A stretch of 64,000 bases of DNA from Alphaproteobacteria bacterium (GTDB lineage Bacteria > Pseudomonadota > Alphaproteobacteria > CALMVH01), in NCBI GenBank assembly GCA_965199265.1, contig CBDAQV010000001.1, forward strand, positions 316,180-380,179, written 5' to 3'. The notes under the pieces are model-generated. The model saw nothing but the letters and a program-made list of their open reading frames with translations, was not told the DNA's origin and made no database searches. Numbering within the stretch: the stretch's first letter is position 1; the number at the start of each line of letters is the position of its first letter. This document shows, in pieces, positions 4,766 to 13,220 of this stretch. The position numbers and the translations under genes were made by a program.

Positions 4766-6078
4766 CCGCCTTCTCCCCTCGCGAGATCGTTTCCGAACTT
4801 GACCGCTTTATCGTCGGCCAGACCGACGCCAAGCGCGCCGTCGCCATCGCGCTGCGCAACCGCTGGCGCCGCCAGCAACTGCCCGATGCGCTGCGCGACG
4901 AGGTGCTGCCAAAGAACATCCTGATGATCGGCCCGACCGGCGTCGGCAAGACCGAGATCGCGCGCCGCCTTGCGCGGCTGGCGCAGGCGCCGTTCCTGAA
5001 GGTGGAGGCGACCAAGTTCACCGAGGTCGGCTATGTCGGGCGCGACGTCGACTCGATCGCCCGCGACCTGCTGGACATCGCGATGGCCATGACGCGCGAG
5101 AAGCTGCGCAAGGACGTGGCGGCCAAAGCCGAGCTTGCGGCGGAGGAACGGGTGCTGAACGCGCTGGTTGGCGACAACGCCAGCGACGGCACGCGCCAGG
5201 CCTTTCGCAAAAAGCTGCGCGACGGCGAGCTGAACGACAAGGAGATCGAGATCGAGGTCGCCGATACAGGTGGTAGCGGGGGAATGCCGATGTTCGACGT
5301 GCCGGGCATGCCGGGCGCGCAGATGGGCATGCTCAACCTTGGCGACATGCTGGGCAAGGCGATGGGCGGGCGCACCAGGACGCGCCACCTGACCGTCGCG
5401 CAGTCCTACGAAGTGCTGATGATCGAGGAGTCGGACAAGCTGGTCGACAACGAACGCGTCGTGCGCGAGGCGATCGAGGCGGTGGAGCAGAACGGCATCG
5501 TCTTCCTCGACGAAATCGATAAGATCGCGGGGCGGTCGGAGTACAAGGGCGGCGGCGATGTCAGCCGCGAGGGCGTGCAGCGCGACCTGCTGCCGCTGAT
5601 CGAAGGCACGACGGTGCAGACCAAGCACGGCCCGGTCAGGACCGATCACATCCTGTTCATCGCCTCGGGCGCGTTCCACATGGCAAAGCCCTCGGACCTG
5701 CTGCCCGAGCTGCAGGGCCGCCTGCCGATCCGCGTCGAGCTGAAGCCGCTGGTCGAGGCCGACTTCAAGCGCATCCTGCTCGAACCCGAGGCCAGCCTCA
5801 TCAAGCAATACATCGCGCTGCTGAAGACCGAGGGCGTGGACCTCGTCTTCACCGACGATTCCATCGACGCGCTGGCGCGATTGTCGGTCGAGATCAACGG
5901 CAGCGTCGAGAACATCGGCGCCCGCCGCCTGCATACCGTGCTGGAACGCCTGCTGGAGGAGATCAGCTTCGCCGCCGCCGACCAGTCCGGCCAGACGATC
6001 ACCATCGACGGCAATCTGGTTCAGGAACGCATCGGATCTCTGGCGAAGGACACGGATCTCAGCAAGTTCATCCTGTAA
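4762..6078 (+). CDS. hslU: ATP-dependent protease ATPase subunit HslU
   Basis: Walker [19 protein letters not shown] is present and the 438-aa protein matches HslU over its full length. The GTG start overlaps the hslV stop. Confidence 0.95.
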
Positions 6079-6147
6079 AAGGGAATCGCAACCTGTGCGG
6101 CCCGGAAGGCAGTCGACAACATAGTGTCGTAATATTTTAAAGTTACA

Positions 6148-6190
6148 AACGCCTCCCCCGCAAAATATTCTGCGGGGGAGGCGTTTTCAC
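6148..6190 (+). terminator. Rho-independent terminator of hslU
   Basis: A perfect 15-bp stem aacgcctcccccgca / tgcgggggaggcgtt with loop aaatattc is followed by a T-run. Confidence 0.75.
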
Positions 6191-6224
6191 GCTTGCATTA
6201 GAGATTTGAGATTGCATAAATGAA

Positions 6225-6265
6225 AACGCCGCTCGGGAACGGTTGGAGCCAACCCGAGCGGCGTT
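6225..6265. terminator. Second, bidirectional hairpin
   Basis: A perfect 13-bp stem aacgccgctcggg / cccgagcggcgtt has T-runs on both strands. It lies just upstream of the ATG at 6291. Confidence 0.55.
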
Positions 6266-6290
6266 TTGCAACTCCTATCACGAGGCTATC

Positions 6291-7586
6291 ATGATTGAGC
6301 ACGTTAAACCTACGGCACGAATACCAGCAGTTCAAGGGTCGTTTGGGCCACGTCTTTTGTCGTACACCACACAACTCCCGGCGGGGTCTCTTGAAACGAT
6401 CGTTGGCCACGATCCCAGATCGAAACAATGGAAGCGATTGCCCGATGACATAGCTAATATATATGAACACTTGCAGCGTGCGACAACTAAGCAGCGGCTC
6501 GATTCAATTATTCGCTACATACGCTACCGCTTCATGGAGCGTTCAATCGTTGTTGGTGCTTTTCCTGCAATTTCTATTGCCGTCCAAAACAGTACGCCGT
6601 TTGAGCCATATAGTTCTATTTCAGACAGTGGAGTTGGTGTTTTACAATTCGACCTTTCGCGCCGCAATCTTAGGATCGTAGTTGACGGTCTTGGTAGAGC
6701 TTCGGCTAGCCTAGAATTGGTGGAACTCGCTGAATCAGATGACTTAATGCCAGATGCTAAGGTAGCGCTTCAAAGCCTTTTGAAGGATTTTTCTCTGCCA
6801 ACCGTATTTTATATGCCTGCTCCGGGAACGCCTCCTCTCAGCCTTAGAGAAATGCAGCAGCTATTTCATGATTTCAATTTTAAGGTCACTGCAGTACCGG
6901 CTCGTATTGCTATAGCTCTCGACCATTCAGACCTCTATATTGGGCTTGCTAATCGAATAGGTGAGTCAAACCCAATCCAAGTCCATGGCGGTATGGAAGT
7001 TAAAGCAGCCTCATTGGGCAAGAAGTCGACTGCAATCGTCGTCCAGCAAAATCTAGTGAGATTTGTCCGGGCGGCTACTGAGGGGGAACGATTTATAGAA
7101 GGTACATCCAACAGCGACTTGAAGGAGCCGAATCTCACGGATGAAACTCGGGAAGCGTTTGAGGAGGGAATTATAAAGTTTTTGGATGCGTTTTCTGCGA
7201 GTATGGGGCCGGAGAAATTCAAAGATCGTGAAGGTCTCCATTTGACGGCGCCTGGATGGGGTTCTCTCGGATTGATTTATCACGATCTGGCCGAACGACT
7301 GAAGGTTCCTGATGTCCCGTCAGCCGCAGCCAAGATCGGTAAGCTGAATTGGACGCGTTCTGCTGATATGTGGAAGAATATCGTTCGTGAGCGTGATGAC
7401 AAGGAAGGTAATAGGGTACTTGGTCTCGCAGCAGGCGGAGCCCAGAACCGCCGTTATCTTACAAACGCTGTCCGACACTATCTTGGTTTGGATACTCTTT
7501 TGAAAGAAAAAGGTTTCTCAGATGATAAGGAACCTGACGAGTTAGTTTATTCGCCCGCTGCGAAAAGCGTTGATGAGGAGAACTAA
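6291..7586 (+). CDS. Divergent DGQHR-domain (DndB-like, ParB/Srx-fold) protein with DGLGR in place of DGQHR
   Basis: The N-terminal …AVQGSFGPRLLSYTTQLPAGSLETIV… resembles the DGQHR-family N-motif. RIVVDGLGRASA sits at the DGQHR position. Downstream QQLFHDFNFKVTAVPARIAIALD resembles the family's LFxDxN motif. The locus is low-GC, and an RBS gagg lies 5 nt before the ATG at 6291; the ORF track starts at 6243, inside the hairpin. Confidence 0.55.
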   Translation: MIEHVKPTARIPAVQGSFGPRLLSYTTQLPAGSLETIVGHDPRSKQWKRLPDDIANIYEHLQRATTKQRLDSIIRYIRYRFMERSIVVGAFPAISIAVQNSTPFEPYSSISDSGVGVLQFDLSRRNLRIVVDGLGRASASLELVELAESDDLMPDAKVALQSLLKDFSLPTVFYMPAPGTPPLSLREMQQLFHDFNFKVTAVPARIAIALDHSDLYIGLANRIGESNPIQVHGGMEVKAASLGKKSTAIVVQQNLVRFVRAATEGERFIEGTSNSDLKEPNLTDETREAFEEGIIKFLDAFSASMGPEKFKDREGLHLTAPGWGSLGLIYHDLAERLKVPDVPSAAAKIGKLNWTRSADMWKNIVRERDDKEGNRVLGLAAGGAQNRRYLTNAVRHYLGLDTLLKEKGFSDDKEPDELVYSPAAKSVDEEN

Positions 7587-7588
7587 TT

Positions 7589-7813
7589 ATGAAAGGAGGT
7601 TCATTTCACCGCTCTCGGTGCAGGGCTTTAACACCTTCGGATGCAGCCTTGATCAAAGGAATGCTGTCCAGAGGTGATCTGCAGAGCAATATAGCGGCAT
7701 TCTTTGGGGTAAACGGAGGACGCATTTCGGAAATCAATACGGGAAGGCGCTATTCGTCGATTCAGCCAGTTTACGAAGAATTACCTCCTCCTGGTCCGTA
7801 CAAGGTCCACTAA
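7589..7813 (+). CDS. Small helix-turn-helix (HTH) DNA-binding protein (Hin/resolvase- or IS630-type HTH pattern)
   Basis: LTPSDAALIKGMLSRGDLQSNIAAFFGVNGGRISEINTGRRY fits the L-x6-I-x6-G-x5-IA-x2-FGV-x4-I HTH pattern. The ATG lies 2 nt after the stop of the preceding gene, with aaggagg upstream. Confidence 0.5.
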   Translation: MKGGSFHRSRCRALTPSDAALIKGMLSRGDLQSNIAAFFGVNGGRISEINTGRRYSSIQPVYEELPPPGPYKVH

Positions 7814-7920
7814 CTACCACCGGGTATCCCAGGTTTGCCTAAGCAGCCTGGGATATTCTCTGATTATTAATGATATGATGGTCACCTTACTTATTCTGTA
7901 ACGCAAGATTTAAGGTCATA

Positions 7921-8328
7921 ATGATTATTGGGGTTGAAACAACCGCTCCGCCCCCGCCGGAGCCGACGGAGGACGACATTCGCCGCCTGCTCGACGCGTT
8001 CTACGACCGTGTCCGCGCCGATCCGCTGATCGGGCCGGTGTTCCTGCGCGCGCTCGGCACGACCGCGGAGGACTGGGCGCCGCACATGGCGCGGCTGAAC
8101 GATTACTGGTCCAACGTCATGCTGCGCACAGGGCGCTACCGCGGCAACATCCTGCACACCCACCAGCGCTTGCCCGATCTGCAGCCCGAAATGTTCGACC
8201 GCTGGCTGGCGCTGTTCGGCAACACCTGCGCCGAAATGCTCGACCCGGCGCTGGCCGAGAACTTCAGACAGCGCGCCAACCACATCGGCAAGAACTTGCG
8301 GGCCAGTTTGTTCGGCCGGGTGTTGTAA
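7921..8328 (+). CDS. Truncated haemoglobin (group III-like globin)
   Basis: DIRRLLDAFYDRVRADPLIGPVF…HQRLP…, about 135 aa, is typical of the truncated-haemoglobin family. Confidence 0.65.
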   Translation: MIIGVETTAPPPPEPTEDDIRRLLDAFYDRVRADPLIGPVFLRALGTTAEDWAPHMARLNDYWSNVMLRTGRYRGNILHTHQRLPDLQPEMFDRWLALFGNTCAEMLDPALAENFRQRANHIGKNLRASLFGRVL

Positions 8329-9809: not shown

Positions 9810-10289
9810 GTGACGCAGCCTCGCATCGCTCCCAAGCTGGTTTATGCCTTTGTCGCGCTTCTGGCGCTCGCGCCACGGGGGGCTTGGGCCGCGGCGGACG
9901 CCGAGAAGGTAACTAGCGGCTCTGGCCCGTCGGACTCGCCAAGCGGCGATTCCGCGCAGGAGCAGCGCCGCGCGAACCACATCGAAGGGCACATTGCCTT
10001 CCTGAAGGCCGAGCTGATGGTCACCGCCTCGCAGGAAGACGCCTGGAGCAAGGTAGCGGATGCCATGCGCGACGACGTGACCGAGTACGAGCAGATGGCC
10101 ACCAAGTACCCGCAGTCCCAAACCGAGCCGACGGCGTTGCAAAGCCTGAACGAACGCGGCGATTTCGCGGGGTTACGCGCCAAAGGCGAAGTGCGCTTCC
10201 TCGCGGCGTTCAACCCGCTCTACGCCAGCTTCTCGCCTAGGCAGAAGCAGGTCGCGGACGATCTGTTCGCCAGCCATGACGACGAGTGA
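9810..10289 (+). CDS. Periplasmic Spy/CpxP-like (LTXXQ-motif family) protein
   Basis: A GTG start is followed by a signal peptide PKLVYAFVALLALAPRGAWAA. Helical repeats contain …LMVTASQEDAW… and …FSPRQKQVADDLF…. Confidence 0.55.
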   Translation: MTQPRIAPKLVYAFVALLALAPRGAWAAADAEKVTSGSGPSDSPSGDSAQEQRRANHIEGHIAFLKAELMVTASQEDAWSKVADAMRDDVTEYEQMATKYPQSQTEPTALQSLNERGDFAGLRAKGEVRFLAAFNPLYASFSPRQKQVADDLFASHDDE

Positions 10290-10302
10290 GCGAGGACAAG
10301 GC

Positions 10303-10641
10303 ATGAAACTTCCTCTTTGCAGCAGAACCAGATCCATGCTGATCCTTGCCGGTGCCGTCGCGGCGCTATGCGGGGTGGGCTGTGTCCCCGTTGCCTCGCA
10401 AGGCTATTACCCGCCCGGTGCTTACGCGCCGGGGGTCGCCGCTTACCCTTATCCCGATTACCCATGGTACTACGGTCCTGAAGTCGATATCTACGGCGGC
10501 TACGGACGCGGCGGTTACGGCGGGTATCGCGGTGGTGGCGGATACCGCGGCGGCGGCGGATATCGCGGCGGCGGCGGGTACCGTGGCGGCGGCTTTCGCG
10601 GCGGCGGTGGTGGCCATGGCGGAGGCGGTGGCCATCGCTAA
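10303..10641 (+). CDS. Secreted glycine/tyrosine-rich repeat protein (GGYRGGG repeats)
   Basis: A signal peptide MKLPLCSRTRSMLILAGAVAALCGVGC is followed by a proline/tyrosine-rich region and then GGYGGYRGGGGYRGGGGYRGGGGYRGGGFRGGGGGHGGGGGHR. Confidence 0.6.
   Translation: MKLPLCSRTRSMLILAGAVAALCGVGCVPVASQGYYPPGAYAPGVAAYPYPDYPWYYGPEVDIYGGYGRGGYGGYRGGGGYRGGGGYRGGGGYRGGGFRGGGGGHGGGGGHR
10500..10640 (+). repeat. Tandem 15-bp coding repeat (ggc ggc gga tac cgc-like units)
   Basis: Direct repeats encode the GGYRG units of the glycine-rich protein. Confidence 0.7.
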
Positions 10642-10648
10642 ACGCTTG

Positions 10649-10861
10649 TCAGGGCACCGGGTCCAATCCGCTGCCGCCCCAAGGGTGGCAACGGCAAATG
10701 CGTAGGAGGGCAAAACGGCCGCCTTTAATCGCGCCGTGACGCCGGACGGCCTCGGTGGCGTACGTCGAGCAGCCGGGAGCAAAGCGGCAGACGCCGCAAC
10801 AGAACATCGCTCCCAGCGTCAACTGGTAGATGCGGATCAGGATCAGCAGAGCGTATTTCAT
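10649..10861 (-). CDS. yidD: Membrane protein insertion efficiency factor YidD
   Basis: [48 protein letters not shown]…CHPWG is canonical YidD. Confidence 0.85.
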
Positions 10862-11223
10862 TTCGCGTCGTTCAATTTGCGGATGATACCGAGTCCCTTG
10901 CACGCAAAGTGCAGATCACCGCGCAGTTCGTCATACGAACGCGTCAGCGTGCCCGCCCTGCCGATCAGCACCAAATCCAGCGGCTTGTCTTCATGTTCGC
11001 CCAGTACCTCGCGCGCGGCCTCGCGCAGGCGACGGCGGGCTCGGTTGCGCTTGACAGCATTGCCGACCTTGCGTGACACGGTAAAGCCCAGCCTCAGGTT
11101 GGCTCCTGGTGAAGCAGGCTCGGCATCGCGACTCTGCACGATGATGCCGGGCGTCACCCATTTGCGATTGGTCGCGGCGACAGCCAGGAACTCGGCACGC
11201 TTCCTCAGCCTGCCAAGAGCCAT
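10858..11223 (-). CDS. rnpA: Ribonuclease P protein component
   Basis: …[30 protein letters not shown]… is the RnpA RNR motif. Confidence 0.9.
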
Positions 11224-12264: not shown

Positions 12265-12483
12265 TCAGCGCAGCTGAAAGCCGATCTTTACCGTTTCCTG
12301 CACGCGGTAAAGCCAGTTTCCGCTGGCGTCGAGCAGGCCGGTTTCCATCGGCGACTTGTCCGCTTCCATGACGGTGCAGCTTTCGGGCATCAGCACATGG
12401 TCGCCCACGCTGTAATCGTAGTAGCCGCCTTGCGGACGGGTTGATGGTGCCTTTGCCATTGCCACGTACCTGTAGTTAGCCAT
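12265..12483 (-). CDS. Small hypothetical protein
   Basis: A 72-aa ORF has a good RBS (aagggga) upstream and an AT-rich promoter region. Confidence 0.45.
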   Translation of the reverse strand: MANYRYVAMAKAPSTRPQGGYYDYSVGDHVLMPESCTVMEADKSPMETGLLDASGNWLYRVQETVKIGFQLR

Positions 12484-12560
12484 TCCGAGTCCCCTTCTGT
12501 TCCGGTTTGCCCTACGAGGCTTCTCCCCGCGCCATGATTAATCTTGTACGACAAAATTAG

Positions 12561-13220
12561 TTAATTCGGGATTTCGTCGTCCGGAAGAAAACGGGTCGGC
12601 AGGTGGCTCCGCCGGAAATCGGCTTCGTCGCGGGCGGAGGCGTATCCGGGATGCAGGCATTCGACGCCCGCCGCGGTTGCGAGCCAGAGTTCGCAATTGT
12701 TCATGCGCGGCAGCGCCTCAACCCAGTCGAGCGTCTGGCCGGCATGGACCATCGCAAGCACTCTTGTGGTCGAGCGGTGTCCCACGACAATCGCAAGTTC
12801 GGCCGAAGGCACTGGCCGCAACCGTTCCGCATCAAAGCTTCGCAGAACCTCCAGCAAGCCGGGCAGCGTAGTGCCGTCGATCACGCGTCCGAACAAGCCG
12901 GGCTCATCCGGTGTCGGCCGAAACTCGCGAGGGAGAAACCGGATTTCCCCGATGCGGGTATCCTCGATCAACGGCGCGACGTCCAGCCCGCTTCCCGCAA
13001 GGGATTGCGACGCTATCTGCCAGGTCCGCGAGGCACGAACATGTCCGGACGCGAACGGTACGACGGCGCGTACGCCCAAATGGCGCGCGAGCGCGAGCAG
13101 GCGCGGGCCGATCCGGCTTGCCTGTGCCACGCCGTCCGGGTGGAGGGGAGTCGCGGGGTCGTCCGTCCCGCCCTCGATGTTCTTGCCGGTCGCCGCGTGA
13201 CGGAGGAATACAATCGGCAT
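12561..13220 (-). CDS. Histidine phosphatase (phosphoglycerate-mutase-like) family protein
   Basis: MPIVFLRHAATG… carries the RHG motif and has a branch-2-like layout. Confidence 0.7.
   Translation of the reverse strand: MPIVFLRHAATGKNIEGGTDDPATPLHPDGVAQASRIGPRLLALARHLGVRAVVPFASGHVRASRTWQIASQSLAGSGLDVAPLIEDTRIGEIRFLPREFRPTPDEPGLFGRVIDGTTLPGLLEVLRSFDAERLRPVPSAELAIVVGHRSTTRVLAMVHAGQTLDWVEALPRMNNCELWLATAAGVECLHPGYASARDEADFRRSHLPTRFLPDDEIPN

Follow-up and report, generated by a model that had tools for sequence, protein, structure and literature searches.

A DndB-like gene with a conserved upstream palindrome, a covarying leader stem-loop and an interchangeable second gene in a low-GC segment next to hslU of an alphaproteobacterium

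What is the role of a short AT-rich segment lying directly behind hslU, and is it native to the genome which carries it? This question was raised by a stretch of 64,000 nucleotides (nt) from an alphaproteobacterium (assembly GCA_965199265.1, contig CBDAQV010000001.1, positions 316,180 to 380,179 of the forward strand), hereafter called the window, in which the segment of about 6.1-7.9 kb carries two genes on the same strand: gene A, coding for a protein of the DndB family, and gene B, coding for a small helix-turn-helix (HTH) protein. A preliminary description of the segment, made from the letters of the window, had presented the pair as a minimal accessory or defence-type module or as the remnant of a larger system, with hairpin terminators on both sides. 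The analysis reported here, in which all functional statements rest on the study of sequences alone, leads us to propose, at about even confidence, that gene A codes for an autoregulated and probably nucleoside triphosphate (NTP)-gated DNA-binding protein of the DndB type, tied to DNA modification and found here without a methyltransferase.

The family of gene A was examined by profile searches. The protein matches the Pfam DndB model PF14072 with 75.6 bits (E=5e-21), well above the gathering cut-off of 29.1, and the match covers positions 13-337 of the 338 of the model, in agreement with the kinship proposed in the preliminary description. The score against the DGQHR domain model TIGR03187 (54.2 bits) is slightly under the curated cut-off of 58.85, and that against the DndB equivalog model TIGR03233 (27.6 bits) is far short of the cut-off of 328. 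In PADLOC-DB 2.0, gene A gave a weak match of 25.8 bits to DndB alone; no defence model other than this generic one was obtained for gene A and none for gene B. The search of PHROGs gave no match for gene A. The N-terminal domain has the ParB/Srx fold and the C-terminal domain is helical. Comparison of the gene A model with the PDB by Foldseek gave nothing at E<=0.001, and the sequence-profile search of the PDB gave chance matches only. From about residue 184 onward, the C-terminal half matches the DndB model alone at E<=1, and no DUF1524/HNH nuclease was found in it.

At the place of the canonical DGQHR motif, which is not kept, gene A has DGLGR (6684-6698 of the window). The form DG[LMI][GA]R was present in all the 80 aligned full-length members of the family, and DGQHR returned solely among the most distant matches of the profile search, so that the motif can indeed be taken, as first suggested, as the mark of a divergent subfamily, designated below as DG[L][GA]R. 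The phosphate-binding pattern GxxRxxA is kept in gene A as DGLGRASA, with G134, R137 and A140 (alignment numbering) conserved; the arginine of DGLGR is R136 of the 431-residue protein. In ParB and DpdB, the G..R..A pattern binds the phosphate of the nucleotide (PMC10164549), and ATP and GTP binding has been described for a DndB-like protein (PMC12704722). The N-terminal domain of gene A probably binds nucleotide as well. Gene A is full length and possesses all the invariant residues of the family.

The DG[L][GA]R family is of small size and has sharp limits: of 1.84 billion cluster representatives, 307 were recovered at E<=1e-3, a number reduced to 115 at E<=1e-30. Its members belong mostly to the Alphaproteobacteria, Sphingomonadaceae, Stellaceae, Rhodospirillaceae, Bradyrhizobium and Beijerinckiaceae among them. 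For the comparison of gene contexts, 27 genome loci, 80 metagenome loci and a few loci found by exact look-up were assembled (about 110 in all, designated below by L numbers); the use of peptide patterns to gather them may have favoured certain subclades.

The 150 nt upstream of the DndB-like gene were aligned across these loci and revealed a common architecture, the elements of which are located for the window in Table 1. The core of the inverted repeat called hairpin 1 is the palindrome CCCCGC-N10-GCGGGG. The pattern CCCCG[CT]-N10/11-[GA]CGGGG, searched with spacers of N9-12, was found at -280 to -60 in 50 of the 87 non-redundant loci with enough upstream DNA, for a background of 3 matches elsewhere in the same 652 kb. 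It was present in 22 of 24 loci at >=57% identity, in 24 of 44 at 40-56% and in 4 of 19 below 40%. Spacers of 10 nt (37 loci) outnumber those of 11 nt (13 loci), the whole element being 22-23 bp long, and the palindrome is kept with every type of downstream partner, down to a protein identity of 32%. The DndB-like protein may use it as an operator or as a loading site. The gene A product is the candidate binder of the palindrome because the DndB-like protein is the sole protein common to the palindrome loci, and an autoregulatory binding is suggested by the case of Salmonella DndB, which binds TACG-N10-CGTA palindromes in its own promoter (PMC4507180). In work cited in PMC10164549, DndB is described as an ATP-modulated autoregulator.

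Other signals accompany the palindrome. The hexamer GTCGAC, conserved beside it in the close clade, stands at -82 to -230 in most loci of the clade of >=57% identity and is enriched in the -200 to -100 bin alone (0.25 per locus versus 0.03-0.10 in the other bins). Extra half-sites occur within 80 nt of the palindrome in 24 of 53 loci. A TTGAC is found at most 70 nt after the palindrome in 22 of 53 loci of relatives, versus 5.7% in shuffles. In the window, the palindrome is followed by a promoter-like stretch with TTGCAT at 6193-6198 and an A/T-rich -10-like block at 6215-6222, both read from the sequence; a second TTGCAT occurs at 6212-6217. This stretch would act as the promoter of the operon. 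The consensus promoter scan pointed to a site overlapping the start codon, which was not accepted.

The promoter-like stretch is followed by a second hairpin. In a 23-locus alignment, the 13-pair helix of this hairpin 2 is 88.3% paired, with compensatory changes in 12 of the 13 pairs; none of 500 shuffles reached this value, and helices slid along the alignment pair at 26-47%. In the close clade, the stem-loop ends 20-34 nt before the ATG, ahead of the ribosome-binding site. In distant clades the sequence of the stem is wholly different and a 5'-leader hairpin is still there, up to 90 nt from the ATG. Hairpin 2 matches no Rfam family, and the search of Rfam with the region 6050-8000 gave nothing but sub-threshold microRNA and small RNA noise. 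The preliminary description had read the two left hairpins as consecutive terminators flanking the segment. Their stability, and that of the third hairpin after gene B, was borne out, all three being far stabler than shuffled sequence; the bracketing role of the left two was not, as an operator-like palindrome and a 5'-leader stem-loop, both conserved in relatives, were found in their place as parts of the cassette. The outer stem and T-run of hairpin 1, which are specific to the window, may in addition terminate hslU. The outer stem AAACGCC/GGCGTTT is common to hairpins 1 and 2, and the 3' arm of hairpin 1 (6180-6189, GGCGTTTTCA) is perfectly complementary to the 5' arm of hairpin 2 (6221-6230, TGAAAACGCC). 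Because the outer stem is shared, an alternative, attenuator-like pairing which excludes both hairpins is possible.

The gene which follows the DndB-like gene was identified in 76 non-redundant loci with downstream DNA. A DNA methyltransferase was found directly downstream in 19 of them, almost always on the same strand, and belongs to one of three unrelated families: N6_N4 methyltransferase (PF01555) in 10 loci, phage-type Dam (PF05869) in 5 and C5 cytosine methylase (PF00145) in 3, a small HTH protein followed by a C5 methylase being present in one further locus. The other partners are a zinc-ribbon protein of about 70 residues (7 loci), a small HTH protein of the gene B family (5 further loci, 6 in all), a second type of HTH protein of about 125 residues (4 loci) and a YjzC-like protein (2 loci). 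In the remaining 39 loci no partner was recognised, a figure which partly reflects missing sequence, many metagenome contigs being short. Two close relatives, L005 and L048 (64% identity), are among the 19 loci with an adjacent methyltransferase. Loci with different partners are intermingled in a neighbour-joining tree, where the nearest relative of the window copy, L032, has the second HTH type. The three methyltransferase families and the zinc-ribbon and second HTH partners were searched for elsewhere in the 64-kb window, and nothing was obtained below E=0.03.

The methyltransferase-containing cassettes look like two-gene units, because the open reading frames (ORFs) past the methyltransferase are not conserved between loci and have a host-like GC content. 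These ORFs, considered as candidates for a restriction gene, have no Pfam match either and were rejected. Clustering of the neighbour ORFs of the approximately 110 loci revealed no conserved family past the partners listed above; the dnd and dpd genes were not searched directly. No dnd domain was present among the Pfam-annotated neighbours, dndC, dndD and dndE not having been the object of a direct search, and no TGT-like dpd neighbour emerged from the clustering, with the same limit for TGT-like genes. The preliminary description had named dnd and dpd clusters as the usual setting of DndB-like proteins; no conserved extra family which would make one of them the larger system came out of the clustering (which did not address these genes directly), and it is methyltransferases that recur. 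The more general proposal of an accessory module or of a remnant of a larger system came close to the truth.

Gene B has no Pfam or NCBIfam family. Its 127 homologues share the core ...KGML.RGD.Q.DIAA.FGVNGGRI.EI.TG... and a conserved C-terminal LPPPGPY. In the AlphaFold2 model (predicted local distance difference test score of 79.5), helices are formed by residues 16-28, 32-39 and 43-51, and the top fold matches (ArdK, CENP-B, IstA, C.Esp1396I and KorA) are all HTH proteins, every one at E>0.1. The HTH nature first attributed to the protein is supported by this three-helix model and by the uniformity of the matches. The narrower label of Hin/IS630 type had to be dropped, as no HTH_7- or HTH_23-like match was obtained in Pfam or NCBIfam at E<=1 and the fold matches are of the low significance just given. 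In PHROGs, the matches of gene B are weak, the best one (E=6e-4) being to a family of unknown function.

It had also been asked whether the DGLGR variant travels with the HTH protein. As an obligatory partner the small HTH protein was not retained, given its 6 loci of 76; it does recur in distant branches. Besides gene A, it follows two other distant clades of ParB-fold proteins. The first of them (L121 and L122) is a DGGHR-type protein which scores 189.5 bits against PF14072 and shows 22% identity to gene A in a partial alignment; in L121 (2544-4309) and L122, this protein and the small HTH adjoin a RES/Xre toxin-antitoxin pair. The other (L123, 2547-3989, and L125, 2559-4004) is a 480-residue family with a DGGHN motif, the two members being 53% identical to each other; a long-form gene B homologue follows, overlapping or 12 nt away. 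Against the AIPR model, this family scores 22 and 13.8 bits, below the Pfam threshold of 25, and no Pfam family passes. It was also considered as a relative of the DG[L][GA]R proteins and rejected, the profile comparison giving a probability of 0.2%. The gene B family was encountered in addition without any DndB-like neighbour, on a Sphingobium plasmid (L028) and on a chromosome together with a YjzC-like gene (L030). Since it is found without a DndB-like neighbour and also after two other ParB-fold proteins, the gene B family is, on the strength of these neighbourhoods, a facultative yet genuine recurrent partner of DndB/AIPR-type proteins. On the Sphingobium plasmid (L028, 5495-6717), the small HTH gene lies just upstream of a DUF1883-TIR gene, with HEPN/nucleotidyltransferase (MNT), Gp49/HTH and Eco57I-like genes nearby, and in its leader a stem-loop separates a -35-like TTGACG from the start codon.

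Several observations connect the small partners with each other. The second HTH family (L032, 7295-7666, and L093-L096) starts with PPGPHAG and the gene B family ends with LPPPGPY; the peptide PPGP[HY] thus stands at opposite ends of two small partners of one DndB-like family. The YjzC-like protein of about 64 residues which follows the DndB-like gene in L035 and L037 is homologous to that encoded at 6230-6421 of L030, after a solitary gene B homologue (pairwise E=5e-7). Because a YjzC-like protein follows both DndB-like genes and a solitary gene B homologue, the small partners would form one network.

The origin of the segment was examined by its composition and its recurrence. In 300-nt windows, the GC content is 0.45-0.53 for approximately 6000-7950, versus 0.64-0.70 on the left and 0.62-0.70 on the right, so that the low-GC island noticed at the outset is real. 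The neighbour genes of the DndB-like gene change at every locus examined (Tol-Pal and ABC transporter genes, methionine-synthase paralogues, a sigma factor with an integrase), and the GC content of the gene is under that of its flanks in 29 of the 31 loci where the flanks are long enough, the mean deficit being 8.7 points. Because the cassette recurs in unrelated contexts and because of this GC deficit, the foreign origin previously supposed for the segment is upheld, and these features point to a horizontally acquired and mobile cassette. An integrase is close to the cassette at one locus (L035), and most loci have neither integrase nor transposase nearby. One family member, on a cyanobacterial plasmid, was found among the 72,556 records of the plasmid collection and none in the phage collection. 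The search for an empty site was negative, the nearest truncated-haemoglobin homologues being 65% identical and not beside hslU in the two contigs examined; because no empty hslU-haemoglobin site was available for comparison, the boundaries of the insertion are not fixed. No convincing target-site duplication or terminal repeat was found in 5950-8050. In L033 (4898-9764), the cassette and a 258-residue ORF without Pfam match are located between Meth_synt_2 genes of 217 and 345 residues, which may reflect an insertion beside or into a duplicated Meth_synt_2 gene. In L083 (2809-7400), a phage Mu F-like gene precedes the DndB-like gene and its Dam-type methyltransferase by about 1.1 kb, and this family member may sit in a prophage remnant.

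These results can be assembled as follows. The segment is a self-contained, horizontally acquired cassette, the first product of which would bind, as a dimer, the palindrome just upstream of its own promoter-like stretch and would autoregulate the operon, as Salmonella DndB does at its own palindrome. The transcript would start with the conserved stem-loop. The second gene is interchangeable across the family, a DNA methyltransferase occupying this place in a quarter of the loci, and the gene A protein would most likely be an NTP-gated DNA-binding regulator or partner in functions linked to DNA modification. Several points weigh against this proposal, to which we give an even chance. The Q and H of DGQHR are lost in gene A and its handling of nucleotides may differ from that of DndB; no partner was recognised in about half of the loci examined for it, and no methyltransferase of the three families is present in the window; the assignment of the promoter in the window is weak, 6193-6222 not being the choice of the consensus scan; and a host factor could be the binder of the palindrome, or the palindrome could have a use in recombination. 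A bolder version of the proposal, quite unlikely when taken as a whole, would see in the segment an autonomous cassette of a kind undescribed before, in which a ParB-fold NTP-gated DNA clamp would load at its own parS-like site and, with an interchangeable partner (methyltransferase, small HTH, zinc-ribbon or YjzC-like protein), would police DNA modification or exclude invading DNA. The small HTH protein would then play a KorA-like role, and its pairing with ParB-fold proteins in three clades would represent a general two-component design of defence or anti-defence. No paper on the DG[L][GA]R subfamily came up in the literature search, nor any on the palindrome or on the link with methyltransferases. 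The KorB-KorA pair of IncP plasmids, where an NTP-dependent ParB-fold protein at palindromic operators is associated with a small HTH co-regulator, resembles the segment by its architecture alone: KorA is among the non-significant fold matches of gene B, and gene A has no detectable homology to the HTH or dimerisation domains of KorB.

Other explanations were confronted with the same data. The pair could be a two-gene abortive-infection or defence module, in which a ParB-fold NTPase or nuclease, as effector or sensor, would act on incoming DNA under the control of an HTH regulator; in relatives where a methyltransferase lies alongside, it would shield the cell's own DNA, in the manner of a restriction-modification pair. 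The occurrence of the small HTH family directly downstream of three distant ParB-fold clades, one of which has a weak match to AIPR (abortive infection), speaks for such a module, as do the DUF1883-TIR, HEPN/MNT and Eco57I-like genes around the Sphingobium homologue, the RES/Xre toxin pair adjoining L121 and the literature, where DndB/AIPR-type ParB domains are placed in defence loci (PMC3632139; PMC10853773). Nevertheless, the AIPR scores are under the Pfam threshold, the PADLOC match to DndB is weak and PHROGs gave none for gene A. The C-terminal half matches the DndB model alone, and neither a nuclease nor a HEPN motif was detected; the HNH/DUF1524 nuclease domain which ends the DUF262-DUF1524 proteins GmrSD and SspE is missing, and the ParB-fold defence proteins of the AIPR, AbiU1 and DUF262 (GmrSD, SspE, BrxU) groups have no significant sequence match to gene A. 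In addition, the association of one protein with three chemically different methyltransferase families ill fits a restriction enzyme matched to one target, and a restriction-like effector should be toxic alone, yet no adjacent methyltransferase accompanies it in the window or in the 39 loci without recognised partner. We consider this explanation as unlikely. Gene A could also code for a site-specific ParB-fold nickase which would act at the palindrome and ensure the mobility or maintenance of a minimal selfish cassette, the second gene being cargo. This would account for gene A being the one gene shared by the copies of the cassette at many unrelated places of chromosomes, mostly without integrase or transposase nearby, and for a conserved palindrome near one cassette end, and some ParB/Srx proteins are said to nick DNA in work cited in PMC12839542. 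However, the window has neither flanking direct repeats nor a second palindrome, GTCGAC is enriched upstream alone and not at the right end, no empty site was found for comparison, an integrase lies near a single locus, and the family is almost absent from the plasmid records and absent from the phage collection. Such a role appears very unlikely.

The adjacency of methyltransferases in a quarter of the loci, close relatives included, evokes a helper ATPase of the DpdB type which would have lost its partner methyltransferase and would be a leftover, or would serve a methyltransferase encoded elsewhere. DpdB, the precedent, is a ParB-fold ATPase needed by DpdA for the insertion of preQ0 into DNA (PMC10164549). 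Like gene A it joins a ParB fold to a helical C-terminal domain, and its position beside a DNA base-modifying enzyme makes it a possible model for the methyltransferase-linked relatives; it differs by its DGQQR motif, its TGT-like transglycosylase partner and its large cluster, where methyltransferases or small proteins are found here, and the window cassette is without modifying enzyme. Fusions of a ParB-type fold with N6_N4 DNA methyltransferases exist in phages and prophages (PMC12704722) and likewise bring the two together, but each of them is one fused polypeptide whose ParB part is a canonical ParBc domain, and prophages are enriched in them, whereas separate genes, a fold of the DndB branch, three methyltransferase families and a negative phage collection characterise the present family. 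Against a leftover stands the full-length gene A with every invariant residue kept; the loci without adjacent methyltransferase are in the majority and spread over the tree, and the gene A protein would therefore be maintained for its own function. A pure helper role, moreover, leaves the conserved operator-like palindrome unexplained, and we hold it to be rather improbable. There is finally the ordinary DndB, which would regulate a dnd phosphorothioation cluster encoded elsewhere in the genome. The Pfam match favours it and some databases call the homologues 'DNA sulfur modification protein DndB'; the DndB of dnd systems (Salmonella enterica, Streptomyces) likewise falls in PF14072, has an N-terminal ParB fold and a helical C-terminal domain, and its operator, a palindrome with short half-sites about 10 nt apart upstream of its own gene, has an operator-like counterpart at gene A. 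Yet the motif DGQHR of DndB is gone, replaced by DG[L][GA]R, the equivalog model is missed widely, and the sequence CCCCGC-N10-GCGGGG is unlike the published operator TACG-N10-CGTA. The cassette consists of one or two genes with a variable second one, and no dnd gene or domain was seen around the loci, either by clustering or among Pfam-annotated neighbours, dndCDE not having been searched directly. This explanation is extremely improbable.

Table 1. Elements of the low-GC segment, with positions in the window
Feature	Position	Strand	Description
GTCGAC hexamer	6114-6119	none	beside the palindrome; conserved in the close clade
Hairpin 1, inverted repeat	6147-6186	none	-35.3 kcal/mol, z -8.4
Palindrome CCCCGC-N10-GCGGGG	6156-6177	none	core of hairpin 1; sole copy in the 64-kb window
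Promoter-like stretch	6193-6222	+	TTGCAT and A/T-rich -10-like block
Hairpin 2, GC-rich stem-loop	6223-6267	+	24 nt before the ATG; 15-bp perfect arms; -34.1 kcal/mol, z -4.7
Gene A	6291-7586	+	431 aa; DndB family, DG[L][GA]R subfamily
Gene B	7589-7813	+	74 aa; three-helix HTH protein, C-terminal LPPPGPY
Terminator-like hairpin after gene B	7822-7858	+	-24.2 kcal/mol, z -4.1

The two-gene layout with a gap of 2 nt between the TAA of gene A and the ATG of gene B, as given in the preliminary description, was found again. The length of 432 residues attributed there to the first protein was not, the stop codon or the Ile codon at 6288 having been counted; the database copy of gene A (P0001) likewise has 431 residues. 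Gene B is preceded by GAGGAG and, with the 2-nt gap, its translation is probably coupled to that of gene A. None of 200 shuffles was as stable as the hairpin which follows gene B, and the sequence from there to 7921 is AT-rich. The upstream neighbours of the cassette are hslV and hslU, the latter ending at 6078 and matching the AAA_2 domain; downstream, a group III truncated haemoglobin gene starts at 7921 and is followed by an aldo/keto reductase gene. No tRNA gene was found within the first 16 kb of the window. Elsewhere in the window, two more GC dips occur at 1201-1500 and 12301-12600 (0.53 and 0.57) amid sequence of 0.62-0.70, and an ORF at 10276-10641 (+ strand) codes for a Gly/Tyr/Arg-rich repeat protein (GGYRGGGGYRGGGG...) after a signal-like N-terminus. 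The sequences of the ORFs adjoining it at 10649-11223 (- strand) resemble yidD and rnpA, a likeness read from the letters without a family search.

For the genome from which the window comes, the annotation of two apparent hslU terminators is corrected by these results. For the family, they provide a set of cis-elements accessible to experiment, namely the 22-23-bp palindrome, the promoter-like stretch and the covarying 5'-leader stem-loop, and they show that a rare family of small HTH proteins recurs as a partner in three ParB-fold clades distant from one another. ParB-fold proteins of the DndB type are known components of phosphorothioation systems, as their relative DpdB, also of ParB fold, is of 7-deazaguanine systems. 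Through the DG[L][GA]R subfamily, the DndB-type fold is tied to ordinary methylation of DNA, by way of methyltransferases from three unrelated families, as well as to small partners which bind DNA, and this linkage suggests that the ParB fold may be a general regulator or co-factor of DNA-modifying and DNA-surveillance functions.

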